Source: an uncultured Verrucomicrobiota bacterium
Lineage (GTDB): Bacteria > Verrucomicrobiota > Verrucomicrobiia > Limisphaerales > UBA9464
Assembly (NCBI GenBank): GCA_903922605.1
Contig: CAIXUG010000086.1
Location: 3,384-67,383, forward strand
DNA: 64,000 bases
Direction of reading: 5' to 3'
Position 1 is the stretch's first letter; every line of letters begins with the position of its first letter. The notes beneath the pieces are model-generated. The model was not told the origin of the DNA, did not search any database, and saw only the letters and a program-made list of their open reading frames with translations. The position numbers and the translations under genes are program-made. Positions 6,045 through 62,143 of this stretch are shown piece after piece.

Positions 6045-7259
<1,215 letters not shown>

Positions 7260-27298: not shown

Positions 27299-29242
27299 GT
27301 GAAACCTCCTGGAAGCCGCCCAAGCCGCCTTGTATGGCTGCTGCTATTGGCCGCCTGGTTTCCCCTGCCCGGTTTGTGGGCCGCGACCGTGACAACTGTC
27401 ACCACCAACCTTTGGTCGCTACAGCCACTCCAGCATCCGGCCATTCCGCCGGCGTCCGGTCCCAGCGAGTGGCGTAACAATCCGATTGATGCGTTTGTCG
27501 CCGACAAGCTCCGGCAACTCGGGCTGCAACCCGCTCCGCCCGCCGATCGCGGCACGCTCCTCCGACGGCTCAGCTTTGACCTGATTGGTCTGCCACCGTC
27601 GGCGGAAGAGACCGCCGCCTTCCTCCGCGACTCGCGCGGCGACGCTTACGAACGGGCCGTGGACCGCCTGTTGGCCTCCTCGCACCACGGCGAACGTTGG
27701 GCGCGCCATTGGCTGGACGTCGTGCGCTTCGGTGAATCCCAGGGTTTTGAGTACGACCGCATCCGCGAGCACGCCTGGCGGTACCGCGATTACGTGATCC
27801 AGGCCTTCAACGACGACAAGCCTTACGACCAATTCATCCGCGAACAGCTTGCTGGCGATGTGCTGCTGGAAGCAAACGCCGTGAGCGTCATCGCCACGGG
27901 TTTCCTCGTTGCCGGACCTTGGGATCAGGCCGGGCACAGTTCAGCCAGCGCGAGCGTGCGCGCGATGGTCCGCGAGGCGGAACTGGAGGACATTGTCGGC
28001 ACGGTGGCGCAGACGTTTCTGGGCGTTACGCTCAACTGCGCCCGCTGCCACAACCACAAGTTCGACCCCATCCCGCAGCGCGACTATTACCGAGTCAAAG
28101 CCGTGTTTCAGGGCGTGAACCACGGCGACCGCCATTTCCCCGGAGGCAGTACCAACGACTGGAGTTACGCGGCAAACGCCAGCCAGCCCGAGGCCACGTT
28201 CATCCTGAACCGCGGCGAGCCCGACAAACCGAAGGATCAGGTGACACCCGGGGCACTGGAGGCGCTCGCCGCCCATTCTGGCGAGCTTGGTTTGGCCGCA
28301 GATTCTCCCGAAGGCGAACGCCGCCGACGCTTCGCGGACTGGGTTGCGTCACCGGAAAACCCGCTCACCGCACGCGTCATCGTGAACCGCGTCTGGCAGC
28401 ACCATTTCGGGCGCGGGCTCGTAGCCACGCCGAACGATTTCGGGAAAATGGGCGAACCGCCTTCACATCCTGAACTGCTCGACTGGCTCTCCGCGTGGTT
28501 TGTCTCACCCGACGGCGCCAACTGGAGCCTGAAGCGGCTGCATAAGCTCATTGTCACGAGTGCCGCTTACCAGCAGTCATCAGTAATCAGTAAATCAGTG
28601 ATCAGTGAGTCGGTGACTGCCAAGCGCTCACCTGCTGGAGAACTGAATGCTGCTTCACCGATTACTGAATCACCGGCCCTCCAGCGCGATGCCGACAACC
28701 GCCTGCTTTGGCGCTTCACACCGCACCGGCTGGAAGCGGAGGAATTGCGTGACGCGCTGCTCGCACTGAGCGGCGAACTGAACCCGCAGATGGGCGGACC
28801 CGGTTTCCGTCCGTTCCGTCATGTCACCAACGGCGGCCAGAACGAATACTTCGCCTCCGATCCCGCCGGCGCGGAGTTCAACCGGCGCACCATTTACCGC
28901 ATCTCCGTACACTCCGCCCGTGATCCGCTGCTCGACTCGCTCGACTGCCCCGAATTCTCGACCCGCACACCGGTTCGTGCCAACACCACGACTCCCTTGC
29001 AGGCGTTGTCGCTGATGAACGATTCCTTTGTGCAACGGCAGGCGGCGAAGCTCGCTGAACGTGTGCAGCGCGAAGCCGGTCCAGATCTGAAATACCAGGT
29101 CGATCAGCTCTGGTTCCTCACCTTGGCCCGCGAACCGAAACCGGCGGAGCGACGCGATGCGTTGAAACTTGCCCGTGAACAGGGGATGGCGAGCGCCGCC
29201 TGGGTGCTGCTCAACTCCAACGAATTTGTCTTTGTGCGATGA
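27299..29242 (+). CDS. DUF1549/DUF1553 (PSCyt2-PSD1) protein, copy A (no large central module)
   Basis: Sec leader. Boxes [59 protein letters not shown]-terminal PSD1 boxes NRVWQHHFGRGLV...[10 protein letters not shown]...[10 protein letters not shown]. Confidence 0.9.
   Translation: MKPPGSRPSRLVWLLLLAAWFPLPGLWAATVTTVTTNLWSLQPLQHPAIPPASGPSEWRNNPIDAFVADKLRQLGLQPAPPADRGTLLRRLSFDLIGLPPSAEETAAFLRDSRGDAYERAVDRLLASSHHGERWARHWLDVVRFGESQGFEYDRIREHAWRYRDYVIQAFNDDKPYDQFIREQLAGDVLLEANAVSVIATGFLVAGPWDQAGHSSASASVRAMVREAELEDIVGTVAQTFLGVTLNCARCHNHKFDPIPQRDYYRVKAVFQGVNHGDRHFPGGSTNDWSYAANASQPEATFILNRGEPDKPKDQVTPGALEALAAHSGELGLAADSPEGERRRRFADWVASPENPLTARVIVNRVWQHHFGRGLVATPNDFGKMGEPPSHPELLDWLSAWFVSPDGANWSLKRLHKLIVTSAAYQQSSVISKSVISESVTAKRSPAGELNAASPITESPALQRDADNRLLWRFTPHRLEAEELRDALLALSGELNPQMGGPGFRPFRHVTNGGQNEYFASDPAGAEFNRRTIYRISVHSARDPLLDSLDCPEFSTRTPVRANTTTPLQALSLMNDSFVQRQAAKLAERVQREAGPDLKYQVDQLWFLTLAREPKPAERRDALKLAREQGMASAAWVLLNSNEFVFVR
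28575..28675. repeat. In-frame palindromic heptamer-lattice element, copy in DUF1553 gene A (degenerate)
   Basis: Left array tcagtaa tcagtaaa tcagtga tcagtga gtcggtga. Right arm tcaccgattactgaatcac (28655-28673) is complementary to gtgat...tcggtga (28598-28616). Encodes SSVISKSVISESV...SPITESP. Confidence 0.7.
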
Positions 29243-29739: not shown

Positions 29740-31159
29740 CCGATCTCTCAACCGCCGCCACTTCCTCTTCCGCTCCGCCTGCGGTTTCGGCGGCGTCGTG
29801 CTGGGCTGGCTGTGCGCGGAGGAGGCACGGGCGGCAGCCCTGGCTTCGCCCTATGCGCCCAAGCCGCCGATGTTTCCGGCGCGGGCCAAACGCGTCATCC
29901 ACATTTGCGCGCTCGGCGGTGTCAGCCATGTGGACACCTTTGACTACAAGCCGGAGTTGGAGCGTCGGCATGGCCAGGATTCCGGGCGCAAGTTCGACAC
30001 GTTCTTCAGCCAGCCGGGTCGACTGCTCAAAAGCCCGTTTGCCTTCCGCCAATACGGTGGCAGCGGACGCTGGGTTTCTGATTTGCTGCCCTATCTCGCG
30101 GGATGCGTGGATGACCTCACGTTCATCCACTCGATGCACAGCAAGAGTTCGAATCACACGCCGGCCACGTTCCTGATGAACTCCGGGTTCACGTTCAATG
30201 GCTTTCCCAGCGCCGGCGCCTGGGTGAGCTATGGTCTGGGCTCGGAAAACCAGAATTTGCCCGCTTACGTCGTGCTGCCCGACCCACGGCAGCTTCCGGC
30301 GGGCGGCTCCATCAATTGGACAAACGGATTCCTGCCGGCGGTGCATCAGGGCGTCGCCTTTCGCTCGGGGGAGCGGGATCCCATTCCCGATCTGGCCACA
30401 CCTTCCGACATCTCCCCTGCCCGCCGCGAAGCCAGCGTGCACCTGCTCGAGAAACTCAATGCCGCCGATGCTGCGGCCCACCCCGGTGACTCCGCCCTGG
30501 CCGCGCGCATCCGGGCCTACGAACTCGCCGCCCAGATGCAGCTCCGCGTGCCGGAATTGGTGGAACTTTCCCGCGAGACGGCCGCCACCAAATCGGCCTA
30601 CGGCCTCGACCATCCCAATGCGGCCACGGCGGGTTTTGCGCGCAACTGCTTGCTTGCGCGGCGGCTCAGCGAACGGGGGGTGCGTTTTGTGCAGATTTTC
30701 AACGGCGGCCAGTTCGGCTCCCCGCGCATCAACTGGGACGGCCACGAGGACATCGTGGAAAACCACCGCAAGCAGGCCCTGACCATGGACCAGCCGGTGG
30801 CCGCCCTGCTGCGCGACCTCAAGCAGCGCGGTCTGCTCGACGAGACCGTGGTGCTGTGGACGACCGAGTTTGGTCGCACGCCGATCACTCAGGGCATCGA
30901 TGGCAAAGGGCGCGATCACCACCAGCATGGCTTCACGATCTGGGCCGCCGGCGCGGGCCTGCAGCCTGGCCTGGCCTTCGGAGCAACGGATGAAATCGGC
31001 TACGACGCGGTCGAGAACCCGGTGGAATTCTACGACGTCCACGCCACCCTGCTCCGGTTGCTGGGCGTCGAGCACACGAAGCTCGTCTTCCGCCACAACG
31101 GCGTGGATCGCCGGCTCACCGACGTACACGGCGAAGTGGTCCAAGGAATTCTCGCATGA
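29732..31159 (+). CDS. DUF1501 protein (alkaline-phosphatase/sulfatase-superfamily-like), TAT leader, copy A
   Basis: From ATG 29732. Leader LNRRHFLFRSACGFGG. Boxes GGVSHVDTFDYKP, FIHSMHSKSSNHTPA, WTTEFGRTP, GRDHH. C-terminus [16 protein letters not shown]. Confidence 0.9.
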   Translation: MLSRSLNRRHFLFRSACGFGGVVLGWLCAEEARAAALASPYAPKPPMFPARAKRVIHICALGGVSHVDTFDYKPELERRHGQDSGRKFDTFFSQPGRLLKSPFAFRQYGGSGRWVSDLLPYLAGCVDDLTFIHSMHSKSSNHTPATFLMNSGFTFNGFPSAGAWVSYGLGSENQNLPAYVVLPDPRQLPAGGSINWTNGFLPAVHQGVAFRSGERDPIPDLATPSDISPARREASVHLLEKLNAADAAAHPGDSALAARIRAYELAAQMQLRVPELVELSRETAATKSAYGLDHPNAATAGFARNCLLARRLSERGVRFVQIFNGGQFGSPRINWDGHEDIVENHRKQALTMDQPVAALLRDLKQRGLLDETVVLWTTEFGRTPITQGIDGKGRDHHQHGFTIWAAGAGLQPGLAFGATDEIGYDAVENPVEFYDVHATLLRLLGVEHTKLVFRHNGVDRRLTDVHGEVVQGILA

Positions 31160-33849
31160 AGTGGAGTGCGCGCATGCTGGGAATGCTGTTGCTGGTGATC
31201 AGCGCGGTTTCAGCCTGCGCCGACGTCTCGACGAATGCTGACCACTGGGCCTATCGACCGCTCGCCGCCCCCCCGGTTCCAGACTTTCCGGCTGGTTCCC
31301 GGCCTTCGACGAATCCCGTCGATTCGTTCATCGCGGCGAAGCTCGCCGAACACGGTCTGACGCCGGCTCCCGAGGCCGACCGCCGCACGTTGTTGCGCCG
31401 GGTCAGCTTCGATCTCATCGGTCTGCCGCCGACACCGGAGGAACTTCGCGCCTTCCTGGCCGACACCTCCACCAATGCCTACGAGCGGGTCGTGGATCGC
31501 CTGCTCGCCTCGCCGCGTTATGGCGAGCGCTGGGCGAGGCATTGGATGGACGCCGCGCACTTCGCCGAGACTCACGGCCACGATCAGGACCGCATCCGCA
31601 CCAACGCATGGCCCTATCGCGACTACCTCATCGCCTCGTTCAACGACGACAAACCTTACACCCGCTTTGTGCGGGAACAGGTCGCTGGCGATGTGCTGTT
31701 TCCGGCCGATCCTCAAGCCACGGTAGCGCTCGGCTTCATTGCCGCCGGTCCGTGGGACGAAAGCTCCCTGCGCGACATCCGCGAAGACACCCTCGACCGC
31801 CAGGTCGCCCGCTATCTGGACCGTGACGACATGCTGACGACCGTCATGCAGACATTTGCCAGCACGACGGTCCAATGCGCACGCTGCCACGACCACAAGT
31901 TCGATCCGGTTTCCCAACGGGATTACTACGCGCTGCAGGCGGTGTTCGCCGGTGTGGACCGTGCCAACCGCGTGTTTGACGCCGACCCGCAGGTCCATGT
32001 CCGCCGGCAGGACCTCATGCGCAAGCGTCGCCGCGTGAAGCAAAACGACCGGGCGTTGCTGCTTTCGGCGGAAACCTCGCGTGCGGTCACGGAATGGGAG
32101 GAGCGCCGCGCCGCACACCCGGTCACCTGGTCAACGGTCGACGCTCAGACCTTCGTCTCGGTCGGCGGCGCGACGCTGACGAAACAGGCCGACGGTTCCC
32201 TGCTCGCCATCGGCACGCGGCCCGACCGTGATACGTACACAATCTCTGCGCGTTCCCCGCTGGCGGGGATTACCGGCATCCGCCTCGAAGTCCTGCCCGA
32301 TGCCAGCCTGCCGCACCAGGGACCGGGGCGTAACGAAAACGGCAACTTCCACCTCAGCGAGTTTCAGCTGCTCACGTTCGAGCCGGGTGCCAAAGCCGCG
32401 CGCGAAATTCCGCTGGCAAATCCCAGTGCCGATTTCGACCAGCAGGACTGGGGCATCGCCCGTGCGCTGGATGGCGACGAGAAGACGGCCTGGGGCATCC
32501 ACCCGCGCGAGGGGGAGGCCCATCAGGCGGTGTTCGAGCTGAAGGAACCGCTCGCCCTGCCTCCCGGCACGACGCTGGTGTTCGTGCTCAAGCAACTGCA
32601 CGGTGAAGGCCACCTGATTGGCCGCCCAAGACTGGCTGTCACCGATGCCCGCACTTCCCTGCGGGTGCTGCCAACGGAACTAACGGCGATTGTCGCCCTC
32701 CCCATTGCCCAGCGAACCGACGACCAGCGGGCGTTGCTCGCCGCAGACGTTCTCGGCGAACGCATCCGCCTTGACCTCGCCGCGTTACCACCGCCCTCGC
32801 TCGTCTATGCCGCTGCCAACGACTTCGAGCCCGATGCCAGCCTCAAGCCCTCGGGTGTTCCGCGCGTGGTGAATCTGTTGAAACGGGGCGAGATCACGAA
32901 GCCGATGGAGGTGATTTCTCCGGGCACCCTGTCGTGTGTGACAGCGCTCCCCGCACGCTTCGAACTCGCCGACCCGGCCGATGAAGGCGCTCGCCGGGCC
33001 GCCCTCGCAAGCTGGCTGACCGCCAAGGAGAATCCGCTGACCTGGCGCTCCATCGTGAACCGCGTCTGGCATCACCACTTTGGACGGGGGCTGGTGGACA
33101 CGCCGAACGACTTCGGCCGGATGGGCGGCACCCCGTCGCATCCTGAGCTGCTCGACTGGCTGGCCGTCTGGTTCCGCGACGATGCGAAAGGCTCCTTCAA
33201 GGAACTCCACCGCCTCCTCGTGACCAGCGCCACCTACCGTCAATCTGCCACCGTCGTAAATCGTAAATCCGAAATCGTAAATCCTCCCGACCCAGGGAAC
33301 CGCTTCCTTGCGCACATGAACCGCATCCGCCTCGACGCCGAGTGCGTCCACGATGCCGTGTTGCAGGTCAGCGGTCGGCTTGACCTGCACATGGGGGGGC
33401 CGAGCGACCGGCAGTTTGATTTGCAGCCCGGTATCCACGTCACTCCACGGGTGGACTACACCAAATTCGAGGTGGATGGCGATGCGGGTCGGCGTCGCAG
33501 TGTCTATCGCTTCCTCTTTCGTACCCTGCCCGACCCCTTCATGGAGGCGCTCGACTGTCCCGCCGGCGACCAGCTCACCCCCGCGCGCAACAACTCCGTG
33601 ACCGTCCAGCAGGCGCTCGCGCTGTGGAACAACGCGTTTGTCGCCCGCAACGCCGAACACTTCGCCGCCCGCCTGGAGCGCGAAGCGCAAACGCCTGAAG
33701 CACGGATTCGACGTGCTTTCGAACTCGTTTTTGGTCGCGAGGCCTCGGCGGAGGAACTGACCGAGTTCACCGGGCACACCCGGCAATACGGTTTGGCGAA
33801 CTGCTGCCGACTATTGTTCAATGCCAACGAGTTCGTCTTCGTCAACTGA
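31156..33849 (+). CDS. DUF1549/DUF1553 (PSCyt2-PSD1) protein, copy B, with central ~175-aa module
   Basis: Sec leader. [51 protein letters not shown]. Central GITGIRLEVLPDASLPHQGPGRNENGNFHLSEF module. C-terminal LFNANEFVFVN. Confidence 0.9.
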   Translation: MKWSARMLGMLLLVISAVSACADVSTNADHWAYRPLAAPPVPDFPAGSRPSTNPVDSFIAAKLAEHGLTPAPEADRRTLLRRVSFDLIGLPPTPEELRAFLADTSTNAYERVVDRLLASPRYGERWARHWMDAAHFAETHGHDQDRIRTNAWPYRDYLIASFNDDKPYTRFVREQVAGDVLFPADPQATVALGFIAAGPWDESSLRDIREDTLDRQVARYLDRDDMLTTVMQTFASTTVQCARCHDHKFDPVSQRDYYALQAVFAGVDRANRVFDADPQVHVRRQDLMRKRRRVKQNDRALLLSAETSRAVTEWEERRAAHPVTWSTVDAQTFVSVGGATLTKQADGSLLAIGTRPDRDTYTISARSPLAGITGIRLEVLPDASLPHQGPGRNENGNFHLSEFQLLTFEPGAKAAREIPLANPSADFDQQDWGIARALDGDEKTAWGIHPREGEAHQAVFELKEPLALPPGTTLVFVLKQLHGEGHLIGRPRLAVTDARTSLRVLPTELTAIVALPIAQRTDDQRALLAADVLGERIRLDLAALPPPSLVYAAANDFEPDASLKPSGVPRVVNLLKRGEITKPMEVISPGTLSCVTALPARFELADPADEGARRAALASWLTAKENPLTWRSIVNRVWHHHFGRGLVDTPNDFGRMGGTPSHPELLDWLAVWFRDDAKGSFKELHRLLVTSATYRQSATVVNRKSEIVNPPDPGNRFLAHMNRIRLDAECVHDAVLQVSGRLDLHMGGPSDRQFDLQPGIHVTPRVDYTKFEVDGDAGRRRSVYRFLFRTLPDPFMEALDCPAGDQLTPARNNSVTVQQALALWNNAFVARNAEHFAARLEREAQTPEARIRRAFELVFGREASAEELTEFTGHTRQYGLANCCRLLFNANEFVFVN
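33254..33284 (+). repeat. Direct heptamer array tcgtaaa/tcgtaaa/tccgaaa/tcgtaaa in DUF1553 gene B
   Basis: Four consecutive 7-nt units at 33254-33281, read in frame as VVNRKSEIVN. Same linker position (just after TSATYRQS) as the palindromes in A, C and D. Confidence 0.8.
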
Positions 33850-35318: not shown

Positions 35319-35767
35319 AAACTGTCCTCCCGCTCCTTGCCTGCGCCCTGCTGGCCGTCGGCTGCCGTCATCTGACACCGGCATGGCAGATCGATTCCGG
35401 GGCCGAGGTCCGCGCCGTGATCGACCAGCAGCTGGCAGACTGGAACGCCGGCGACATCAACGGCTTCATGCGCGGCTACTCAAAGTCCTCCTCGACGCGC
35501 TTTGCCTCGGGCGACGACGTGACGCGCGGCTGGCGGACTGTGTTTGACCGTTACGTGGCCCACTACGGCAATCGCGCCGCGATGGGCAAGCTGACGTTCT
35601 CGGAATTGGAAATCACCCCGCTCTCGGCGGAGAGCATCGAGGTCTTCGGCCACTGGCGGCTGGAACGCGAAAAGGATTCGCCGCACGGCCTCTTCACGCT
35701 GCTGTTTCGCAGGACGGCGAGTGGCTGGCGGATCGTCCACGATCACACGTCCGCGGCAACGCCATGA
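35315..35767 (+). CDS. Small lipoprotein, DUF4440/SnoaL-like (NTF2 fold) candidate
   Basis: Lipobox LLAVGC. AVIDQQLADWNAGDINGFMRGY...FGHWRLERE...FTLLFRRTASGWRIVHDHTS resembles the NTF2-like DUF4440 pattern. ATGA overlaps at both ends. Confidence 0.65.
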   Translation: MKTVLPLLACALLAVGCRHLTPAWQIDSGAEVRAVIDQQLADWNAGDINGFMRGYSKSSSTRFASGDDVTRGWRTVFDRYVAHYGNRAAMGKLTFSELEITPLSAESIEVFGHWRLEREKDSPHGLFTLLFRRTASGWRIVHDHTSAATP

Positions 35768-38343
35768 AGTGGCGGCTGAACATCATCCTGCTGACGGTCA
35801 CAACCGCCGCCCGGTTGCTCGCGGCTGATGCCACCAATCATTGGTCTTTCCAGCCGGTCGTCCGCCCTGCCCTGCCGATGGCGGTAGCTGGAACCATCAA
35901 TCCGATTGATCGGTTCATCCAGGCAAAGCTGGCCGAGCAGCATCTGACACCCGCGCCCGAAGCCGACCGGCGCACGCTGATCCGGCGCGTTTCGTTCGAC
36001 CTCATCGGCTTGCCGCCGACGCCGGAAGAGGCTGATGCCTTCGTCCGCGACCTACGACCGGACGCATACGAGCGGTTGGTGGACCGGTTGCTAGATTCGC
36101 CTCACTTTGGGGAACGCTGGGCGCGGCACTGGCTGGATGTGGTGCGTTTTGCGGAAACGCACGGGTTCGAGATGAACAATCCGCGGCCCAATGCGTGGCC
36201 CTATCGCGATTACGTTATCCGCGCCTTCAACGACGACAAACCTTACGACCAGTTCGTCCGCGAGCAGCTCGCTGGCGATGTTCTGGGGGCGGACGAGGCG
36301 ACGGGGTTTCTCGTCGCAGGCGCCTGGGATCAGGTGAAAAGCCCCGACGAAGTGCTGACCAAGAATCAACGGGCCGACGAACTGCACGACATGGTGAGCG
36401 TCACGGGCAGCGCCTTTCTCGGGCTGACCGTCGGGTGTGCGCGCTGCCACGATCACAAGTTCGACCCGATCCCGCAGCATGACTACTACGCGCTCAAGGC
36501 CGTCTTCGAGGGCGTGCAGCATGGGGAACGCGAGCGACGCGTGAATGAAAACGGAACCCGCGAGGACGAGCTGAAGCAGATCCGCTCGCGCCTCTCGGAA
36601 ATCGACTCGGCGCTCGTCCGCTTCGAGCCGCTGGCCCAGGTCGGAATGGTGGACACGAACCGCCTGCGCGCGCCCGTTCATCCTCGCCGCAACGTGGAAC
36701 GCTTTGCCCCGATTTTGGCGAAGCGACTGCGTTTCACCATTCTGGCCACGACCGGGGCGGAGCCCTGCGTCGACGAACTCGAGGCCTTCAGCGTCGGAGC
36801 CGGTGCCACGAATGTCGCGCTGGCAAGCTTCGGCACGAAAGCGACCGCTTCCGGCACCTATCCCAACTCCAACCTGCACCGGCTGGAACACCTCAATGAC
36901 GGGCGCTACGGCAACAGCCGAAGCTGGATTTCCAGCGAGAATGGCAAGGGCTGGGTCGAGCTGGAATTTCCGCAAAGTGTCCTTCTTGAACGTGTCGTCT
37001 GGGCCCGGGATCGCGAAGAGAAGTTCGGGGACCGGCTGGCCACGGAGTATCGCTTCGAAGTGGCTGACGAAGCGGGCGATTGGCGCACCGTTGCGTCCTC
37101 GGCGGACCGCCGGCCATTTCAACCAGGCCAGCCCTATGAGCCGGACCTTCGTTCACCCGATGCCACGATGGCCGAGGCGAGGCGGCTTCGCAGCCTGCTG
37201 GACGAGCAAAAGCAACTGACCGTGCGGATTCACGAATTGGCCGACCGGCCCATGGTTTATGCCGGAGATTTCCGGCAACCGGAAGTGACGCGCCGTTTCC
37301 AGCGCGGTGATCCCATGCAGCCGCGCGAAGAGGTGGCCCCGGGGGCGTTGACACGAATCGTGCGGTTAGGAGCTGCGGCCGATCAAAGCGTCCTGACTTC
37401 GACGGCCACGGAGGAGCAGCGGCGGCGATTGGCGCTCGCCGACTGGATCATCAGCCCGACCAACCCGCTGACGGCGCGCGTCATCGTGAACCGGCTGTGG
37501 CAGCATCATTTCGCGGAGGGGCTGGTCAGCACTCCCAGCGATTTCGGCGTGAACGGCGCCCGCCCGACGCATCCCGAGCTGCTCGACTGGCTGGCGGCGG
37601 AGCTGGTTTCCCACGGCTGGAGCCTCAAGCACATCCACCGCCTGATCGTGACCAGCGCCACGTACCGGCAGAGGTCGGTGATCAGTGAATCAGTAAACGG
37701 TGAATCAGTGATCAGTAAGACAGCCAACACGTCGCGCACCGCCAAACTGAAAACTGATTCACTGGTTACTGATTCACTGGCGCTACAGCGCGATGCAGGC
37801 AACCGACTCCTCTGGCGCTACCCCGCGCACCGGCTGGAGGCCGAACCAATTCGCGATGCGATGCTGGCAGTATCCGGCCGGCTCGATTTGCGCATGGGCG
37901 GACCCGGTTGGTCGCCCTTCGTGCCGAATGAGAACTATGTGCGCGTGTACGTGCCCAAGGACGACTATGGCCCCGATGATTTCCGCCGGATGATCTATGC
38001 CACCGTTGTGCGGCAGCGGCCCGATGGCGTGTTCGGCGCGTTCGACTGCCCCGATGGCGGACAGATCGCTCCCAAGCGTACCCGTAGCACCACGCCACTT
38101 CAGGCGCTCAACCTCCTGAACAGCGGTTTCATCCAGCAAGCTGCCAGCCTGTTTGCCGGACATCTATCTGCGAATGCCGGGGACGCTCCAGAGGCCCAGG
38201 CTCGGGAGGCGTTTCGGTTGGCCTTCCAGCGCGAACCGTCGGCCGATGAGCTGCAGGCCTCGGTCCGGTTCATCGGTGAAGAAAGCCTGTCGCTTTTCTG
38301 CCGCGCTTTGCTGAACAGCAACGAATTCGTCTTCGTCTTCTGA
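35764..38343 (+). CDS. DUF1549/DUF1553 (PSCyt2-PSD1) protein, copy C, with central discoidin (F5/8 type C)-like module
   Basis: Sec leader. [51 protein letters not shown]. Central [21 protein letters not shown]...[27 protein letters not shown]-terminal [11 protein letters not shown]. Confidence 0.9.
37675..37780. repeat. In-frame palindromic heptamer-lattice element, copy in DUF1553 gene C (best preserved)
   Basis: Arm 37683-37716 (cagtgaatcagtaaacggtgaatcagtgatcagt) versus the reverse complement of 37746-37779 (cagtgaatcagtaaccagtgaatcagttttcagt): 30/34 identical by hand alignment, 29-nt spacer. Confidence 0.85.
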
Positions 38344-39956: not shown

Positions 39957-41201
39957 ATGCCCGCCATGCGCGCCATTCGCCGCCGGTTGTCCCTATGGCT
40001 CTTTGCTGGAGTCGTCCTTATCGCCGTTTCCGCCTGGCTGCGTCCTCGTCTGCGTCAGGCCACGACCGTCAACACCGCTCTGGCGGCGGACAGTGTGGAC
40101 GATATGGCGTTGCGCGAGGCGACCGAAGGCCGTCCGTTGCCTTCGGAATTGGTCGAACGTTTTTGGGGTACGCAAAGGCTGCCTCATCGGCGGGCCGCCA
40201 TGAGTGCGCTGGTCTCCCGGGGCCCGGATGACACGGGGCTGGCAGGGCTATGGGATCGGCTGCTGCCGTCGGCGGCGCTGGATCCGGATTACGAGATCCG
40301 CTCACGCGCGTTGGGCGGGCTGCAATCCCCAGTCCATCCCGACCAGTTGGCTCCGGTCGTCTGGCAATTGGCCGATGCGGATCCCGAACTGCGTCAACTG
40401 GGTCTCCAGCATCTGCGCCGGTTGGGTGGGCTGGCACAGTCGCCGCTCGTGCTGCCATTGCTGAACGATCCGGATACTTCGGTGGCCTTGTACGCCGATT
40501 CGGTGCTCCGGCAGTGGAGCGGGCGAGATTCTGGCCTGCGGATGTCCCTTGTCCTGCCGGCACGATCGAGTCTGGTGGCCGAACCGGTTGCGCAGGAGAA
40601 AATGCTCGCCATCAGGCAAGCGTCGGAACAGTGGCGGGAATGGTGGCGCACACAGGAGAAATCTGCGGGCGTAGAAGGGGCCGTGCCTTCACCGCTTCCG
40701 CCGGCGACCCAAAGCCTCCCCTGCCCGCAAATCAAACTGCCGGACCTGCACGGGAACGTGGTGAATGTGGCCAGCCTTAAGGGCAAACTCGTGCTGCTGA
40801 ATTTCTGGACTACCTGGTGCCCAGGCTGCCTGGTCGAACTGCCGTTGCTCGTGGAATTGCAGCGGCGGCATCCGGACGACCTGGTGATCCTCGGAATCAG
40901 CCTCGATTCGCCGGAGCAGGGAGTGCTGGCGGATGCCCCGACGAAGGCGACTGAATCTGCTCCGCCAGATGCCGGTCAGGTCCGAAAGATAGTCGGAGCG
41001 GTCGCCGGCCGGCAGCACCTGAACTATCGAGTGCTCCTGGACCCGGAGAATCGGATCGGACGGCAGTTCAATGGCGGAGAACTGCCCACGAATGTGCTGT
41101 TGGACCGCGACGGGCGCGTGCGGCGGAGGTTCGTTGGCGAACGATCGGTGGAAGTTTGGGAAGCCCTTCTGCGCGACGCAGACCGACCGGCAAGTCGTTG
41201 A
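39957..41201 (+). CDS. Membrane-anchored HEAT-repeat + TlpA/ResA-type thioredoxin (thiol:disulfide oxidoreductase)
   Basis: From ATG 39957 (MPAMRAIRRRLSLWLFAGVVLIAVSAWL). HEAT-like repeats (DPDYEIRSRALGGL, DADPELRQLGLQHL, NDPDTSVALYADSVL). Redoxin core GKLVLLNFWTTWCPGCLVELP. Confidence 0.8.
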   Translation: MPAMRAIRRRLSLWLFAGVVLIAVSAWLRPRLRQATTVNTALAADSVDDMALREATEGRPLPSELVERFWGTQRLPHRRAAMSALVSRGPDDTGLAGLWDRLLPSAALDPDYEIRSRALGGLQSPVHPDQLAPVVWQLADADPELRQLGLQHLRRLGGLAQSPLVLPLLNDPDTSVALYADSVLRQWSGRDSGLRMSLVLPARSSLVAEPVAQEKMLAIRQASEQWREWWRTQEKSAGVEGAVPSPLPPATQSLPCPQIKLPDLHGNVVNVASLKGKLVLLNFWTTWCPGCLVELPLLVELQRRHPDDLVILGISLDSPEQGVLADAPTKATESAPPDAGQVRKIVGAVAGRQHLNYRVLLDPENRIGRQFNGGELPTNVLLDRDGRVRRRFVGERSVEVWEALLRDADRPASR

Positions 41202-41331
41202 GGTTGAAAGCGCCCGTGGGTGTTTGCGCGTCACCTACAGCTGCAGGCGCGGATTTTTCGAACCTTCGCCCAGTCAGGGGATGACGGGAGGGTTTGAAGC
41301 CGTTTACTTTCGACGCGTCATAGCCCCGTTC

Positions 41332-44136
41332 ATGCATCCGCATTTTAGCTCCCCCGCCCTTCGCTGGCTCAGGCCGGTTTGGGTGGCCGCTTGCTTCTGG
41401 CTGTTGGGAGTCAGGTTGCAGGGGGGCGAGGCGAAGTCGCGCATGGATGACTTCGACTGGTGGTCGCTGAGGCCCGTCCTACGACCGTCATTGCCCCATC
41501 TGCAGAATCCCGCTCTGGCCGCGCGTGTGCGCAATCCGGTTGACCGCTTCATTTTTGCGCGACTGGAGCATGAAGGTCTCACCCCTTCACCCGAAGCGGA
41601 TCGGCGCACATTGATCCGACGGCTTTACTTCGATCTGATCGGCCTGCCTCCCGCGCCGGAAGTGGCGGATACCTTCGTGAACGATCCGGCCAACGATGCT
41701 TATGAGAGGCTGGTTGACCGACTGCTGGAATCCCCGCAGTACGGGGAACGTTGGGCGCGTCACTGGCTCGACGTGGTGCATTACGGAGAGACGCACGGCT
41801 ACGACAAGGACCAGCCCCGGCCCAATGCCTGGCCCTATCGCGATTACGTCATCCGCGCGTTTAACTCGGACAAACCGTACTGGCGCTTTGTGCAGGAGCA
41901 GGTCGCCGGCGACGCGCTCTGGCCGGACACCACGGATGGCGTCACAGCGCTGGGCTTTATTGCGGCCGGCCCATGGGACTTCATCGGGCACGTCGAGGTT
42001 CCGGAGACCAAGACGGATGGCAAGATTGCCCGCCTGCTGGACCGTGACGACATGGTGGGAAACGTGATGAACACGTTTTGCAGCACCACCATCCAGTGTG
42101 CGCGGTGTCACAATCACAAGTTCGACCCGATCACGTCGGAAGATTATTACCGGCTGACCGCCGTGTTTGCGGCGCTGGACCGGGCGGACAAGCGCTTTGA
42201 CAGCGACCCGGTGGTCGCCCGCAATCGGGCTTCGCTCGAAACCCAGCAGCAGGCGCTAAAATCCAAGGTGAAAGAGCTGGAAAACAAGCTAACCGGAATG
42301 GGCGGACGACACTTGGAGCTGATTGACCACCTGCTTACCGACCTGCGTGCCGGTTCCAACCCCACCGCGCGGCCTGAGTTCGGCTGGCACAGCCAGATCG
42401 AAGCGCGACAGGATGCCGTCAAATGGGTCCAGATCGACTTGGGTGCTCCGATTCCGTTGGAACGGATCGTTTGCGCGGCCTGCCACGACGACTTCAACGG
42501 CATCGGCGACGGTTTTGGTTTCCCATTGCGCTTCCGCGTTGAAGCGTCGGATGACTCGACGTTCGTAACCGGCGTTTCACTGCTGGAAGATCAGACGAGT
42601 GCCGATGTACCCAACCCCGGTGTCACCCCGCGCGAACTGCGGGCGGCAGGAGTGCGGGCGCGCTATGTGCGCATCACCGCGACGAAGCTCGCGCCCCGGC
42701 AGAATGACTTCATTTTCGCGCTTGCCGAGCTTCAGGTCCTGGACGCCGATGGTCGCAATCTGGCGTTGGGAGCGGACGTGACGGCGAGCGATAGCATCGA
42801 AGCCGAACCCCGCTGGGGTCGGCGCAATCTGACAGACGGATATTTCTTCGGCTTCACCAAGACGGCGGTTGCACCGTCTCCCTCCCTGCTGGAGGCACAG
42901 AGAAAGGATCTGCTCGCGCATCTCACGGATGACGGCACGCGAGAAGGTTTGGAAGACACCCGGGCCGAGCTGAATCGAGTGGAGGCCAGCTTGGCCAAGC
43001 TGCCGCCCACGCAGGTTGTCTATGCTGGCACCATCCACCATGGCAGCGGGTCGTTTCGCGGCACGGGGCCGGACGGCGGCAGACCGCGCCCCATCTTCGT
43101 GCTGAACCGCGGCGACGTGAACAAGCCGACTACAGAGGTCACCGCAGGCACGGTGCGCTTCCTGGGCGACGACGGGGTTTTCGGGGTGCCCAACGACGCG
43201 CCCGAAAGCGCACGGCGAATCGCCCTGGCCAAGTGGCTGACCGATCCACGCAACCCGCTGACCTGGCGATCCATCGTGAACCGGGTCTGGGAGTACCACT
43301 TTGGCCGCGCGTTGGCGGACTCACCGAACGACTTCGGGCGCATGGGCCAGAAGCCGTCGCATCCCGAACTGCTGGACTGGCTGGCGGTGGAGTTTCGCGA
43401 TGGCGGCCAGTCCCTGAAGACGCTGCATCGACTGCTGGTGACAAGCAGCACCTACCGGCAGGTTTCAGTAATCAGTGATTCAGTGAACAGTAAGTCAGTG
43501 AAAAGCGGACGCTTGCCTGCCGAAGGACTGATTACTGATTCACTGATTACTGAATCACTGAACCCGGCTCAGCAGCGCGACGCTGACAACCGGCTGCTTT
43601 GGCGCATGAACCGGCGCAAGCTGGAAGCGGAGGCCATCCGGGACAGCGTGCTCTGGGTGGCGGGCAAACTGGACCCGGCCATGGGCGGTCCCAGTTTTCA
43701 GGATTTTGTGGTCGAACGGCCCGAGCATTCGCCTCACTACGAGTATCGCCTGCACGATCCTGAGAACCCGAAATCGCAACGTCGCTCCATCTATCGTTTC
43801 ATCGTGCGTTCCCAGCCGCAGCCGTTCATGAGCACGCTGGATTGCGCCGACCCCTCCATGACGGTGGATCGCCGGAACGAGACGCTGAACGCACTTCAGG
43901 CACTGGCCCTGCTTAACAACCAGCTCACCGTCGCCATGTCCCGGCATTTCGCGGAACGCGTGGAGACCAAGGATGGCTCCGCCGAAGCCGCCGTAACGCG
44001 TGCATTCCGGCTAGCACTCGCCCGTTCCCCCAGTGCGACCGAGCTCAACTCCCTTTCCGATTTTGCCCGCCAGAATGGCCTCATCAACACCTGCCGGGTG
44101 ATCCTGAACCTCAACGAATTTGCCTTTGTGGACTGA
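41332..44136 (+). CDS. DUF1549/DUF1553 (PSCyt2-PSD1) protein, copy D, with central discoidin-like module
   Basis: Start at ATG 41332 (or 41281) gives a hydrophobic leader. [51 protein letters not shown]. Central VKWVQIDLGAPIPLERIV...RYVRITATKLAPRQNDFIFALAELQV. C-terminal ILNLNEFAFVD. Confidence 0.85.
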   Translation: MHPHFSSPALRWLRPVWVAACFWLLGVRLQGGEAKSRMDDFDWWSLRPVLRPSLPHLQNPALAARVRNPVDRFIFARLEHEGLTPSPEADRRTLIRRLYFDLIGLPPAPEVADTFVNDPANDAYERLVDRLLESPQYGERWARHWLDVVHYGETHGYDKDQPRPNAWPYRDYVIRAFNSDKPYWRFVQEQVAGDALWPDTTDGVTALGFIAAGPWDFIGHVEVPETKTDGKIARLLDRDDMVGNVMNTFCSTTIQCARCHNHKFDPITSEDYYRLTAVFAALDRADKRFDSDPVVARNRASLETQQQALKSKVKELENKLTGMGGRHLELIDHLLTDLRAGSNPTARPEFGWHSQIEARQDAVKWVQIDLGAPIPLERIVCAACHDDFNGIGDGFGFPLRFRVEASDDSTFVTGVSLLEDQTSADVPNPGVTPRELRAAGVRARYVRITATKLAPRQNDFIFALAELQVLDADGRNLALGADVTASDSIEAEPRWGRRNLTDGYFFGFTKTAVAPSPSLLEAQRKDLLAHLTDDGTREGLEDTRAELNRVEASLAKLPPTQVVYAGTIHHGSGSFRGTGPDGGRPRPIFVLNRGDVNKPTTEVTAGTVRFLGDDGVFGVPNDAPESARRIALAKWLTDPRNPLTWRSIVNRVWEYHFGRALADSPNDFGRMGQKPSHPELLDWLAVEFRDGGQSLKTLHRLLVTSSTYRQVSVISDSVNSKSVKSGRLPAEGLITDSLITESLNPAQQRDADNRLLWRMNRRKLEAEAIRDSVLWVAGKLDPAMGGPSFQDFVVERPEHSPHYEYRLHDPENPKSQRRSIYRFIVRSQPQPFMSTLDCADPSMTVDRRNETLNALQALALLNNQLTVAMSRHFAERVETKDGSAEAAVTRAFRLALARSPSATELNSLSDFARQNGLINTCRVILNLNEFAFVD
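43465..43562. repeat. In-frame palindromic heptamer-lattice element, copy in DUF1553 gene D
   Basis: Left 43465-43491 (tcagtaatcagtgattcagtgaacagt) versus the reverse complement of 43527-43553 (tcagtaatcagtgaatcagtaatcagt): 24/27 identical in the best register found. Confidence 0.85.
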
Positions 44137-44164
44137 GCCGCAGGCTCGGCAGGAACACAACTCC

Positions 44165-45679
44165 ATGAGCAACTCATCACCCTGGCACCGCCGGCAGCCC
44201 TCAGCGCTCACTTCGCGCCGCGAGTTTCTTTGGCGCTCCGGAGGCGGCCTGGGCGGCATCGCCCTCGCCTCGTTGCTCGGTGGTCAGGGATTGCTCGCTA
44301 GCGACACAGGATCACCGGTCACGCCGAGTTCCAAGCCACCGCCGTTCCGGCCGAGGGCAAAGCGCGTCGTCCAATTCTTCATGGCGGGGGCGGCCAGCCA
44401 TGTGGACATGTGGGACCACAAGCCGCTCCTTGAAAAGCGGAACGGCGAAAAGTGGGATGCGGGCGAAAAGGTGGAGCTGTTTCAGGACGGCCTCGGCGCG
44501 ACCTTCGCCTCGCCTTGGAAATTCCGCCCCTACGGCCAGTGCGGCAAGATGCTGAGCGACATCGTGGCGCCGCTGGGAGCGGTGGTCGACGAGCTGGCGT
44601 TCATCCACAATCTGGTCGGCAAAACCGGGGTTCATTCGCAGGCGACTTTGCTGCAGGCCACGGGCTTCAACACGCCGGGTTTTCCGGGCATGGGCTGCTG
44701 GGTCAGCTATGGGCTCGGCACGGAGAACGAGAACCTCCCCACGTTCGTGGTCATGCCGGATTTGCGCGGGTTCCCCTCGAACGGCGCGAAGAACTGGGAT
44801 GCCGCGTTTCTGCCTGGCCAGCATCAGGGAACCATCGTGCGCGTCGGTGCGGCCAACCCGATCGAGGATCTGTTCCCTCCCGCCAAGGCGGAGTTCATCC
44901 GGCCCGCGTCGGAGGCCGCCAGCCATGATGTGCTCACGCAGCTCAACCGGTTGCACGCCGCCGACCGTCCGGGTGACTCGCGGTTGGAGGCGCGCATTCG
45001 CAGCTACGAGCTGGCTGCGCGCATGCAGTTGGCCGCACCCGAGGCGCTCGACCTGTCCCGGGAAACGGAGCGCGTGCGTGTCTTCTATGGCATCGACGAC
45101 ACCACGAAAAAGTGGCCCGCCGAAATCAACGTGCCCGAGGAAACCGACATCATGGGCCGCAAATGCCTGACCGCCCGCAGGCTGTTGGAACGCGGCGTTC
45201 GGTTCGTGCAGATCTGGTCCGGCAATGACAACAGCTTCCCCCGGCGCAACTGGGATTCGCACGAGGACATCGCGCGCGATCATGGGCCGCTGTCCCTCGG
45301 CATGGCGAAGCCGATTGCGGCGTTCATTCAGGATCTGAAACAACGCGGCCTCTTGGATGACACTATCATTCTTTGGACGACCGAGTTTGGCCGGATGCCC
45401 TGCGCGCAGGGCGGCAAGGGTCGCGACCATAATCCATTTGTGTTCACCAACTGGCTGTGCGGCGGCGGCATCCGGGGTGGCATCAGCCACGGTCCCAGCG
45501 ACGAGTGGGGCTACAAACCGCTGGACCGGGCGAACCCCACTCAGGTGTACGACATCCATGCCACGATTCTGCGCCTGCTGGGCATTGAGCACACAAAGCT
45601 CACCTTCCGGCACAACGGGGTGGATCGGCGGTTGACCGATGTTCACGGCGAGGTTATCAGCGAGATCATCTCCAGCTAG
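44165..45679 (+). CDS. DUF1501 protein, TAT leader, copy D
   Basis: From ATG 44165. Leader LTSRREFLWRSGGGLGG. AGAASHVDMWDHKP, WTTEFGRMP, GRDHN. C-terminus [17 protein letters not shown]. Confidence 0.9.
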   Translation: MSNSSPWHRRQPSALTSRREFLWRSGGGLGGIALASLLGGQGLLASDTGSPVTPSSKPPPFRPRAKRVVQFFMAGAASHVDMWDHKPLLEKRNGEKWDAGEKVELFQDGLGATFASPWKFRPYGQCGKMLSDIVAPLGAVVDELAFIHNLVGKTGVHSQATLLQATGFNTPGFPGMGCWVSYGLGTENENLPTFVVMPDLRGFPSNGAKNWDAAFLPGQHQGTIVRVGAANPIEDLFPPAKAEFIRPASEAASHDVLTQLNRLHAADRPGDSRLEARIRSYELAARMQLAAPEALDLSRETERVRVFYGIDDTTKKWPAEINVPEETDIMGRKCLTARRLLERGVRFVQIWSGNDNSFPRRNWDSHEDIARDHGPLSLGMAKPIAAFIQDLKQRGLLDDTIILWTTEFGRMPCAQGGKGRDHNPFVFTNWLCGGGIRGGISHGPSDEWGYKPLDRANPTQVYDIHATILRLLGIEHTKLTFRHNGVDRRLTDVHGEVISEIISS

Positions 45680-50870: not shown

Positions 50871-51851
50871 TCAGCTTGGCCCGCGCCGTTCGGCAAGACC
50901 GGTCAGTACGCGACAAACAGCCTCCAGTCGCGGCACCGGAACACCGGCGGCGCGGGCTTGGCGCAGCGGCTCCAGAATCAGGCTCTCCACCTCCAGCACC
51001 GATCCCCGTTCAAAATCAATCAGGGTGGAGGCCAGGTAGCGCCCCATGGTCTGGGTGCGTTCAATTTCGGCCTCGGCGTAGCCCGGCTCGATATTGTGCC
51101 CCAACGCGTTGGCGGCGGCGATCACCTCCTGCATCAGCTCCCGAACCAGCGCGGCCCAGCGGGTGTCGCTTAGAAGCGCGTCCGTGGCTAGAACCGGGGC
51201 GGGGAATTGCGAATTCCGAATTTCAAATTTCGAATCGGTCAGCGCTTCGTAGCCGACCACTCCCGCCACCCCCAATCCGTTGAAGGGGATGTTCCAAACG
51301 AGTTTGAGCCAGTGGGCGCGAGCCAGATTGTCGGCCACCTGACAAGGAATCCCCGCGTGCCGGAACAATGTGGCTAGGTCGTGTGTCCTTGGCTCCGGCC
51401 AGCGCTGAAATTCACCAAACAGGATGCGTCCGCCATCGATGTGGCGCACCACGCCGGGAGCGATCCGGTTAAGGGAGACGAAACACAGGCCGCCCAGGAT
51501 CTGTTCCACGGGGAACAATTTGGCCAGCGCCTCCTCGTTGCCGAGGCCGTTTTGCAGCGTGAGGATGGCTGTTGTCGGCCCGACGAGCGCAGGCAGCAAT
51601 CTTGGAAACTCGGCATTCGCCGTCGTCTTCAACCCGATGAGCACCAGGTCGCAAGGCCCGATCTCGTCGGCGGTGCGGGCGCAGCGGGGACGCACGCGAA
51701 ATGCCTCCGTGTCGCCGCAGACCTCGATCCCCTGCCGGCGCACCTGCTCGTAATCCGAACGCAGCAGAAAATGGGTTGCGTGGCCATCCCGGCAGAGCTT
51801 TGCCCCGTAATAGCTGCCCAGCGCACCAGTGCCGACAATGGCGATTTTCAT
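50871..51851 (-). CDS. panE: 2-dehydropantoate 2-reductase (ketopantoate reductase)
   Basis: MKIAIVGTGALGSYYGAKL Rossmann start. LQNGLGNEE and KLVWNIPFNGL boxes of the ApbA/PanE family. C-terminal ExD-type box (TLIDFERG). Confidence 0.8.
   Translation of the reverse strand: MKIAIVGTGALGSYYGAKLCRDGHATHFLLRSDYEQVRRQGIEVCGDTEAFRVRPRCARTADEIGPCDLVLIGLKTTANAEFPRLLPALVGPTTAILTLQNGLGNEEALAKLFPVEQILGGLCFVSLNRIAPGVVRHIDGGRILFGEFQRWPEPRTHDLATLFRHAGIPCQVADNLARAHWLKLVWNIPFNGLGVAGVVGYEALTDSKFEIRNSQFPAPVLATDALLSDTRWAALVRELMQEVIAAANALGHNIEPGYAEAEIERTQTMGRYLASTLIDFERGSVLEVESLILEPLRQARAAGVPVPRLEAVCRVLTGLAERRGPS
51204..51238 (-). repeat. Five-unit heptamer array (gaattgc gaattcc gaatttc aaatttc gaatcgg) inside panE
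   Basis: AT-rich 35-nt block in a GC-rich gene, read in frame on the minus strand as TDSKFEIRNSQF. Confidence 0.75.
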
Positions 51852-61240: not shown

Positions 61241-62017
61241 CTACCAGCCCAGCCGCTGGGACACCTCGCCGGCGAACACCTCGTAGGCGGCCGCGCCGGC
61301 GCTATAGGGGTCGTACACGGTGATGGGTTTGCCAAAACTGGGTGCCTCAGCCAGCCGCGTGGTACGCGGGATGACCGTGTCAAAGACCTTTGCGGCAAAA
61401 TGCTGCCGTACCTCGGCGACGACGTTTTGGGCCAGTTTCGTGCGGCCGTCATACATCGTCATCAGCACCCCGAGCAGGTCAAGTTTCGGGTTGATGCCCG
61501 TTTCCCGGACCTGATTGAGCACGCGCGAGATCATGGCGACGCCTTCCAGGGCGTAATACTCGCACTGCAATGGCACGATCAGCCAGTCGGCGGCGGCGAA
61601 GGCGTTGAGCGTAAGAATGCCGAGCGCCGGAGCGCAGTCGAAAAGGATCAGGTCAAACTGGCCGGAATCACGCACCGGCTGGAGGGCGACCCGGAGGCGG
61701 TTCAGATAGTCATCGGTGCGGGCCAGTTCCACCTCGATGCCACAGAGGTCGAATTCGCTCGGAAGCACCGACAGGTTGGCAAAGGCCGTCGGCTTGATGC
61801 GCTCCTGCAACCCGCCCTCGCCCAGGAGGGCCTGATAGACGCTGCCGCCCTCGGTCTTTTCCAGACCGAGACCGCTCGTGGCGTTGCCCTGGGCATCCAG
61901 ATCCACCAGCAGCATGCGCCGTCCCTGCACGGCGAGGCAGGCGGCCAGGCTGATGGCGGTGGTGGTTTTTCCGACGCCACCCTTCTGGTTGGCGATCGCG
62001 AGGACTTGTGTAGGCAC
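61241..62017 (-). CDS. parA: ParA/Soj-type partition ATPase
   Basis: Deviant Walker A LAIANQKGGVGKTTT, LLVDLDAQGNAT, ILFDCAP. GTG 62017 preferred; the ATG 62122 alternative adds 35 aa with no ParA similarity. Confidence 0.85.
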   Translation of the reverse strand: MPTQVLAIANQKGGVGKTTTAISLAACLAVQGRRMLLVDLDAQGNATSGLGLEKTEGGSVYQALLGEGGLQERIKPTAFANLSVLPSEFDLCGIEVELARTDDYLNRLRVALQPVRDSGQFDLILFDCAPALGILTLNAFAAADWLIVPLQCEYYALEGVAMISRVLNQVRETGINPKLDLLGVLMTMYDGRTKLAQNVVAEVRQHFAAKVFDTVIPRTTRLAEAPSFGKPITVYDPYSAGAAAYEVFAGEVSQRLGW

Positions 62018-62033
62018 GCCCGGCAAACTTCGA

Positions 62034-62068
62034 ACTCCGAAGTCCGAAGTCCAAGGGGAATTTTGCGG
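62034..62068 (-). repeat. Heptamer array (caaactt cgaactc cgaagtc cgaagtc caagggg) in the parA leader
   Basis: Three good CGAANTC units at 62041-62061 with degenerate flanking units. Lies 17-51 nt upstream of the preferred parA GTG start, in the parA / pyrophosphatase divergent region. Confidence 0.6.
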
Positions 62069-62143
62069 CCCGCAGTGAAAACGCGATTTTTTCCGCTCCG
62101 CGATTGAACCGCCGCACGCCATCCCCTATCCCAAGAAGGCTTC

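Follow-up and report, generated by a model that had tools for sequence, protein, structure and literature searches.

An in-frame palindrome of seven- and eight-nucleotide repeats in a variable loop of the PSD1 (DUF1553) domain of a Verrucomicrobiota bacterium

Few protein families of Planctomycetota and Verrucomicrobiota are as greatly expanded, or as poorly understood, as DUF1553/DUF1549 and DUF1501. A stretch of 64,000 nucleotides from an uncultured Verrucomicrobiota bacterium (assembly GCA_903922605.1, contig CAIXUG010000086.1, positions 3,384–67,383; the whole of this stretch is referred to as the window) contains four tandem DUF1553 genes, here called A to D in the order of their coordinates. 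In gene D (41071–44136, plus strand) about 100 bases at window positions 43464–43562, within the sequence coding for the PSD1 (DUF1553) domain, form an imperfect palindrome of seven- and eight-nucleotide TCAGTRA units that is in frame with the gene. The locus raises the question of how such a repeat came to lie inside a conserved protein domain, and whether it is kept for its nucleic acid structure, for its peptide, or is tolerated by its site. On balance, and with some reserve, we favour a hairpin repeat that arose at the DNA level, has been filtered by translation and tolerated in a permissive loop, has spread among paralogues by ectopic recombination and is now decaying.

The left arm of the palindrome (43464–43502) reads TCAGTAA TCAGTGAT TCAGTGAA CAGTAAG TCAGTGAA on the plus strand and encodes SVISDSVNSKSVK. 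It is followed by a hairpin loop (43503–43526, plus strand) that contains a small internal stem and encodes SGRLPAEG, and by the right arm (43527–43562, plus strand), ACTGATT ACTGATTC ACTGATT ACTGAATC ACTGA, which is the reverse complement of the left arm and encodes LITDSLITESL. A first-pass annotation, made from the letters alone, had quoted the coordinates and sequences of this element accurately, and its count of 24 out of 27 agreeing positions between 43465–43491 and the reverse complement of 43527–43553 was reproduced on recounting. A repeat finder delimited arms of 28 nucleotides (43464–43491 and 43527–43554) that are 89% complementary. The annotation had also anticipated alternative registers; indeed, a second register reaches 86%, and other pairing registers of the arms lie at offsets of +8 and −7. 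The predicted RNA fold of positions 43455–43575 has an energy of −52.3 kcal/mol, compared with −29.1 ± 3.4 kcal/mol for 200 dinucleotide shuffles (z −6.9; 0/200 as good), and with DNA fold parameters the same segment gives −26.3 kcal/mol (z −5.3). The palindrome is confirmed to exceed chance and is real.

Its description as a heptamer palindrome holds for the palindrome and less well for the heptamer, since the units are a mixture of two lengths, 7-8-8-7-8 nucleotides in the left arm and 7-8-7-8 in the right, and the effective period of the arms is 15 nucleotides, or five codons. Consistent with this, Tandem Repeats Finder reported a period of 7/8 with 3.7–5 copies per arm, so that at least three tandem 7-nucleotide copies are present, together with a super-unit of period 15. 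The unit lengths bear on translation. On direct reading of the unit, arrays of pure 7-mers or pure 8-mers of TCAGTGA(W) encounter a stop codon (TGA) in every frame, and the 7/8 mixture is thus what a translation filter would leave. In gene D the only frame open through the element is the gene's own, which runs as TSSTYRQ-VSVISDSVNSKSVKSGRLPAEGLITDSLITESLNPAQQR-DADNRLLWR from one conserved motif into the next, as had been annotated; the other two sense frames contain five to six stops.

Gene D encodes a protein of 1021 residues with, by the open reading frame list and Pfam, a PSCyt2 (DUF1549) domain (residues 156–369), an F5/8 type C domain (F5_F8_type_C, 432–539) and a PSD1 domain (715–998, covering positions 1–243 of the 244 in the profile). 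The element lies 2.4 kb into the reading frame, at residues ∼798–836, where it stands in place of a short spacer between the conserved motifs TSxTYRQ and DxxNRLLWR (in gene D, TSSTYRQ at 43441–43461 and DADNRLLWR at 43579–43605). This spacer (43462–43578, plus strand) is expanded to 39 residues from a modal 11 in homologues. The site had been called a linker, which proved incorrect: the PSD1 profile is matched on both sides of the element, which places it in an intra-domain loop and not in an inter-domain linker. In an AlphaFold2 model of the domain (alignment of 63 sequences; mean predicted local distance difference test score, pLDDT, of 72) the insert is a low-confidence coil (pLDDT of 52–60) following a helix, and the insert loop of gene D is probably disordered. 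The codon adaptation index of the insert is 0.435 vs 0.647, the lowest of all segments of its size in the gene, and the inserts of genes A and C are likewise the lowest-scoring segments of that size in their genes.

The first-pass annotation had treated the element as the second copy of a palindrome in gene C. The gene C copy is present (37672–37791, plus strand, in gene 35764–38343), with arms at 37683–37716 and 37746–37779, a predicted RNA fold of −57 kcal/mol and a z of −6.5, and it occupies the same protein site; the window holds more than these two. Gene A (27299–29242) carries a third copy (28574–28687, plus strand) that is decayed, with an eroded right arm and a fold z of −1.9. At the same protein site in gene B (31156–33849) there is an array of unrelated TCGTAAA/TCCGAAA heptamers (33254–33284, plus strand; fold z +0.6) in which no palindrome was found. 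All four of the tandem DUF1553 genes in the window therefore have a short-period array at this position, and CAGTRA clusters occur within the 64 kb at the three DUF1553 sites of A, C and D and nowhere else. The A, C and D copies are collinear, their arms are ungapped and of the same unit-length pattern, and they have a common right edge, P/L-A-L/Q-Q-R (PALQR/LALQR/PAQQR), that is absent from foreign homologues. The unit-length pattern and the right edge together point to a single cassette rather than to three independent insertions, and the three copies look like one cassette passed between paralogues.

Comparison of these copies shows where the conservation lies. In pairwise alignments of D, C and A the left arms are 71–78% identical and the right arms 81–84%, compared with 30–57% for the loops and 57–74% for the flanking coding DNA. 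This bears out the earlier proposal that the arms, and not the encoded loop peptide, are what the paralogues have in common, although part of the arm similarity is that of any two arrays of one unit, which align well. The loop of gene D had been considered unrelated to that of gene C, and this is so for the pair in question (7/23 identical positions), with the nuance that the loops of D and A are related (13/23). Third codon positions in the arms are conserved no less than first and second positions, which argues for a constraint on the nucleotides and not on the peptide. Of the two possibilities first offered, a nucleic-acid-level element or independent insertions at a permissive site, the former is in keeping with this conservation and the latter fits less well with what looks like a single cassette in the window.

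Copying of a low-complexity linker among paralogues by a long gene-conversion tract was considered. No such tract was found in the flanks of D, C and A, which show no local peak of identity. Moreover, the similarity of D to B in the flanking stretch equals that of D to A, though B is without the cassette. Given the lack of raised flank identity, any transfer of the cassette was old or short, and the refutation by a long copied tract envisaged in the first-pass annotation is not borne out.

Inheritance of the palindrome from the ancestor of the paralogues is rejected on the distances and the spacer states within each subfamily. When the spacer is left out of the comparison, the gene D domain lies at a distance of 0.10–0.25 from more than 100 foreign homologues, which are mostly short-spacered, and at 0.55–0.57 from C and A; genes C and D are each far closer to insert-free foreign homologues than to one another. 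The distribution of the cassette is thus discordant with the gene tree. The nearest relatives found, P0001 for gene D (83%) and P0121 for gene C (78%), both come from JGI sample 3300045391 and have spacers of 21 and 15 residues, respectively, both hairpin-free as read at the protein level. As the P0121 contig keeps the gene order of the window (DUF1553, DUF1501, redoxin, next DUF1553), P0001 and P0121 look like orthologues from an organism related to the source of the window. Judged from these sequences, entry of the cassette into three deep paralogues in this lineage would be more economical than many losses.

If pairing between the arms had been selected over a long period, compensatory changes between the copies might be seen. 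Relative to the gene D structure, C shows two compensatory double changes and A none, with 9–12 broken pairs, in a test that register ambiguity weakens; compensatory evolution among the window copies is hence without support. The scarcity of such changes, together with the decay of the gene A copy, means that long-term selection for pairing is not evident.

The spacer was then followed across the family in loci picked by protein similarity; the samples of filled sites are small. A spacer of 11 residues is found in 46 of the 108 best homologues of gene D, in 112 of 120 homologues of gene C, a nearly uniform subfamily, and at 32 of 60 sites in 80 metagenome loci. Long inserts at the spacer make up roughly 23%, 6% and 11% of these three sets. 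Where their DNA was recovered, the long inserts are mostly heptamer arrays or palindromes with varied units (for example TCAGTNA, AATCCGC, TTTTGGA, GAAAGCG and GTCGAGA), so that repeat hairpins in the spacer loop are found in a share of related Planctomycetota and Verrucomicrobiota genes. TCAGTNA-like units fill the spacers of loci L123, L175, L201 and L204, with predicted RNA folds of up to −53 kcal/mol (L175); the arms are kept in these four copies at the same protein site, and also in intergenic hairpins of the same phyla, which answers the question of arm conservation elsewhere posed by the first-pass annotation. Other spacers carry TTTTGGA/TCCAAAA (L151, −41 kcal/mol), GAAAGCG/GCTTTCA (L135), TGCGGAG/TCCGCAA (L202, −51 kcal/mol) or GTCGAGA/CCTCGAC units (L203, −41 kcal/mol), or a GC-rich, non-periodic palindrome (L125, −49 kcal/mol). 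In L132 AATCCGC units form a right arm only, the right arm of L201 is eroded, and the long spacers of L127 and L133 show no clear periodic array.

The concentration of arrays at this one site is strong. Of 38 clusters of period-7/8 arrays, 12 fall in the spacer, which is 0.5% of the DNA (738 kb, loci plus window; binomial p 5e-19). Clear hairpins are formed by 8 of the 12 arrays at the spacer and by 3 of the 26 elsewhere (Fisher p 0.001), on a classification that was partly manual; an automatic test for ungapped palindromes gave p 0.14, because it misses gapped hairpins and counts self-complementary units.

These counts speak for a reading that we nevertheless judge unlikely, namely that selection maintains the hairpin as an RNA or DNA structure, acquired convergently by lineages with different sequences. 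It might act as a translational pause between protein sub-structures, as an RNase III or stability site that controls the DUF1553-DUF1501 operon, or as a hotspot at which recombination diversifies paralogues; each of the four tandem DUF1553 genes is followed by a DUF1501 gene, which in the case of gene D lies directly downstream (44120–45679, plus strand, by Pfam). In many lineages, independent hairpins with unrelated arms occupy one and the same codon position, and hairpins are over-represented among the arrays there. Arm conservation extends to every codon position as the loops diverge, and the stem, which is very stable, falls where the codon usage of the gene is poorest. Against this, 77–94% of family members are without an insert, and a hairpin is lacking in the closest relative of gene D and in that of gene C. 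The 11–13 residue spacers of 44 loci carry no structure signal, with a mean fold z of 0.0 that is equal to that of control segments, and a hairpin kept family-wide was rejected on this result. Copies also decay (gene A, L201, L132), and compensatory substitutions among the window copies are almost lacking. The broader claim that the PSD1 spacer is a family-wide hotspot, in which unrelated hairpin heptamer palindromes are convergently acquired in many Planctomycetota and Verrucomicrobiota lineages and kept for their hairpin activity, appears to us similarly doubtful. A known RNA family, a promoter or an intrinsic terminator was rejected as well: no Rfam family was found, the sole match being miRNA-like and due to chance (24.8 bits, where the gathering score is 72.9), and no terminator-like or promoter-like site is present at the element.

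The peptide offers another explanation, in which a low-complexity protein linker is selected for its length or flexibility and the palindrome is incidental. Loop length does vary across the family, and new disordered segments are known to arise rapidly from tandem repeats (PMC9879509). This explanation is nonetheless very improbable. The peptides are wholly different between lineages, whereas the DNA architecture of repeat and inverted repeat recurs; third codon positions of the arms are not spared from conservation; the insert has the poorest codon usage of its gene; and a 28-nucleotide arm with the complementarity and fold z of gene D is not incidental. A weaker variant, in which the repeat is a phase-variable contingency locus, was rejected, since all 74 sites in the sampled loci are in frame and none is out of frame (a choice by protein similarity could hide frameshifted copies), and the tracts consist of imperfect units that vary in length.

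The repeat type is not peculiar to DUF1553 genes. Genome contigs, one genome per species, were scanned with a pattern that required 8+8-nucleotide spacing and so favoured octamer arrays. At least 120 loci with TCAGTRAW octamer arrays (TCAGTGAA/TCAGTGAT) were recovered, mostly intergenic and from many phyla; among the matches listed, the hosts include Bacteroidota, Chloroflexota, Acidobacteriota, Burkholderiales, Patescibacteria, Streptomyces and a haloarchaeon, and none is at the PSD1 site. By direct reading, these octamer arrays contain stop codons in all six frames. Intergenic hairpins with TCAGTGA-type arms are found in Planctomycetota and Verrucomicrobiota (L056, L067, L071 and L038), and a contig from a viral collection (L205) also has one. 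In L202 the unit of the DUF1553 site, TCCGCAA, recurs elsewhere in the locus. A peptide search with the cassette yielded no candidate.

In four metagenome loci, the intergenic DNA directly following a DUF1553 or DUF1501 gene holds a further hairpin, with AT-rich arms (L150 6900–7003, L172 2926–3050, L146 8401–8472 and L147 2702–2785). Their arms are heptamer-periodic in L150 and L172 and not in L146 and L147, and no open reading frame runs through the L150 or the L172 hairpin.

A miniature mobile element of the MITE (miniature inverted-repeat transposable element), REPIN or homing type, specific for the DNA encoding TYRQ...DxxN, could in principle account for a site that is filled in three deeply diverged paralogues of one genome and empty in close relatives. 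In the ∼91 kb of loci that carry TCAGTRA-type inserts no CAGTRA cluster was found off-site, as a site-specific element would have it. REPINs consist of two inverted conserved repeats with a less conserved spacer and are predicted to form a long hairpin in single-stranded DNA or RNA (PMC3116915); conserved arms around a variable spacer are the likeness to the gene D element, the arms of which are more conserved than its loop. REPINs lie outside genes, contain invariant 16-mers and are associated with RAYT transposases, in contrast to an intragenic element with tandem-array arms. Neither RAYT nor any transposase was found in the 64 kb, in which no transposase-like Pfam match occurs among 37 open reading frames. 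No clear target-site duplication was found, the flanking similarities being of 3–5 nucleotides only (CAG, CCAGC); the whole original spacer is replaced and not split, with arms that are inverted repeats forming the entire element. At least five unrelated arm families at one site would require several elements with one target, and the same repeat types stand at many non-homologous intergenic places. Taken together, these points make a mobile element improbable.

Translation-filtered origin and paralogue spread, the explanation favoured at the outset, would run as follows. An array would arise at the DNA level through strand slippage or array capture, and the conserved Q-S-S-V codons, CAG TCA TCA GT, amount to a 1.6-unit proto-heptamer that may seed it. 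The left array of gene A begins at the conserved Q codon (CAG TCA TCA GTA..., that is CAGTCAT.CAGT), empty sites often read CAGTCATC after YR, and the right arm of L203 (CCTCGAC) continues into conserved CTC GAC (Leu-Asp) codons. These junctions suggest nucleation by slippage from flanking codons, after which the opposite arm would be made by fold-back or template-switch copying. The surviving inserts keep the frame and avoid the TGA and TAA stops of the unit, giving the 7+8 = 15-nucleotide alternation. The insert would then be translated as a low-complexity, poorly codon-adapted loop, which the domain tolerates. Short-patch ectopic recombination would carry the cassette into the corresponding position of other paralogues, with the conserved flanking codons (TSxTYRQ, DxxNRLLWR) providing the homology. 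Copies then decay, as in gene A, L201 and L132. On this account the hairpin belongs to the DNA element and is no designed feature of the protein, and effects on the mRNA, such as slowing of the ribosome by a −52 kcal/mol stem and rare codons, would be a by-product.

Two observations touch on the decay of copies and on the loop. A premature stop or frameshift upstream of PSD1 is present in 3 of 11 evaluable hairpin-bearing DUF1553 genes, compared with 2 of ∼45 empty-site genes; the disrupted genes are those of L201, L202 (stop near 6300) and L204 (frame change near 8360–8430). Hairpin-bearing copies may be enriched among decaying paralogues, in numbers that are small and in which assembly errors are possible. 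In L200, three successive short-period arrays (GGAGAGCG, GGGGACAA and AATCCGC; 6197–6296) lie in frame in another PSD1 loop, ∼25 residues upstream of TYRQ, from which it follows that the spacer is not the sole array-accepting loop of the domain.

Several points weigh against the favoured explanation. By a rough count that assumes an intergenic fraction of ∼10%, arrays are ∼17 times denser per base in the spacer than in intergenic DNA, which ought to be no less permissive. Tolerance alone is insufficient for such a density, and spread among paralogues, or frame-locking against 7-nucleotide slippage, would have to be invoked. The excess of hairpins among the arrays at the site hints that hairpin formation itself matters. 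As no recombination footprint was seen, the discordance between cassette and gene tree is the sole pointer to the mechanism of spread, and the distribution of TCAGTRA hairpins in the source organism is known within 64 kb only. The strong enrichment and palindromy at one site keep a functional role for the hairpin alive.

Several known systems resemble the gene D element in part. Rickettsia palindromic elements (RPEs) are palindromic, hairpin-capable DNAs of ∼100–150 bp that lie in frame in coding genes, are translated and are compatible with the protein fold (PMC10969869). The likeness is evident in a hairpin palindrome of ∼100 bp, in frame in a conserved open reading frame whose homologues are without it. 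RPEs, however, are dispersed in many unrelated genes and belong to defined sequence families that are not 7/8-nucleotide arrays, whereas the copies described here occupy one homologous loop of one domain family, have arms of short tandem repeats and are hosted by free-living Planctomycetota and Verrucomicrobiota.

The unit itself recalls the TAACTGA heptamer repeats of Beggiatoaceae, Cyanobacteria and Bacteroidetes, which have a sporadic phylogenetic distribution (MacGregor 2015, PMC4679880). Most of these form direct arrays that shortly precede a start codon, with one indirect repeat in 170 sets; forward arrays have stops in all frames, and reverse arrays read as LSVISYQ-like peptides in some open reading frames, at protein termini (PMC4679880). 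The complement of TAACTGA, TCAGTTA, is close to the TCAGTAA and TCAGTGA of the gene D element, the unit of which (TTACTGA/TCACTGA) is one base from TAACTGA; neither the unit nor a position upstream of a start codon is shared. The building blocks also resemble those of the cyanobacterial short tandemly repeated heptamers (STRR). Unlike TAACTGA and STRR repeats, the gene D arrays are paired as a hairpin, lie deep in a conserved domain and alternate between 7 and 8 nucleotides in a manner that keeps the frame. The element is not a member of the RPE, TAACTGA or REPIN families: it has another unit and lies inside a gene, no RAYT was found in the window, and within the DNA seen it is not dispersed among unrelated genes.

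PARCELs share with it translated coding DNA with dyad symmetry and evidence of shuffling within genomes. In PARCELs a defined 25-residue amphipathic motif is repeated in tandem over most of the open reading frame, whereas the gene D element, judged by eye, amounts to one hairpin, with 5-residue sub-repeats, set into a domain that is ordinary in other respects. Elhai et al. reportedly described in Nostoc, in 2008, very short insertions that are associated with small dispersed repeats, are frequently nested within tandem heptamers and lie in conserved genes with the frame kept and are reportedly present or absent between related genomes. Those insertions differ from the gene D element in phylum and in sequence. 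To our knowledge, no hotspot of repeats at a single loop of one domain family has been reported. No description of this in-frame repeat hairpin in the PSD1 loop was found in the literature searched, in which a single-loop hotspot in one domain family, spanning two phyla and with a frame-keeping 7/8 alternation, appears not to have been described previously.

The recurrence of in-frame repeat hairpins marks the PSD1 loop as a dispensable surface, and repeats in the loop explain why these proteomes contain such unusual low-complexity peptides as SVISDS, LITDSL and NPQSAIRNPQ. The sites, whether empty, filled or decaying, and with their varied units, make up a natural series in which the origin of repeats and palindromes, frame filtering and transfer between paralogues are tractable. 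Were the hairpin selected, it would be an unusual nucleic acid signal inside a protein domain and translated as part of it.

Other short-period tracts were seen in the window. A CCACCG/CCA triplet-hexamer tract (5004–5085) at the 3′ end of a minus-strand open reading frame with no Pfam match (4997–5989) encodes a Gly/Trp-rich, low-complexity tail and is unrelated to the hairpin. GAATTTC-type heptamers (51202–51236, minus strand) are read in frame as DSKFEIRNSQF in a ketopantoate reductase (PanE/ApbA; open reading frame 50871–51851), between its ApbA and ApbA_C matches, and constitute a second in-frame heptamer array of the window genome, in an unrelated conserved enzyme. Finally, CGAAGTC-type heptamers (62023–62057, minus strand) lie at the 5′ end of open reading frame 61241–62122, either immediately before a ParA/MinD-like ATPase, whose domain begins at residue 39, or within its N-terminal extension, a placement that recalls that of the TAACTGA repeats before start codons.

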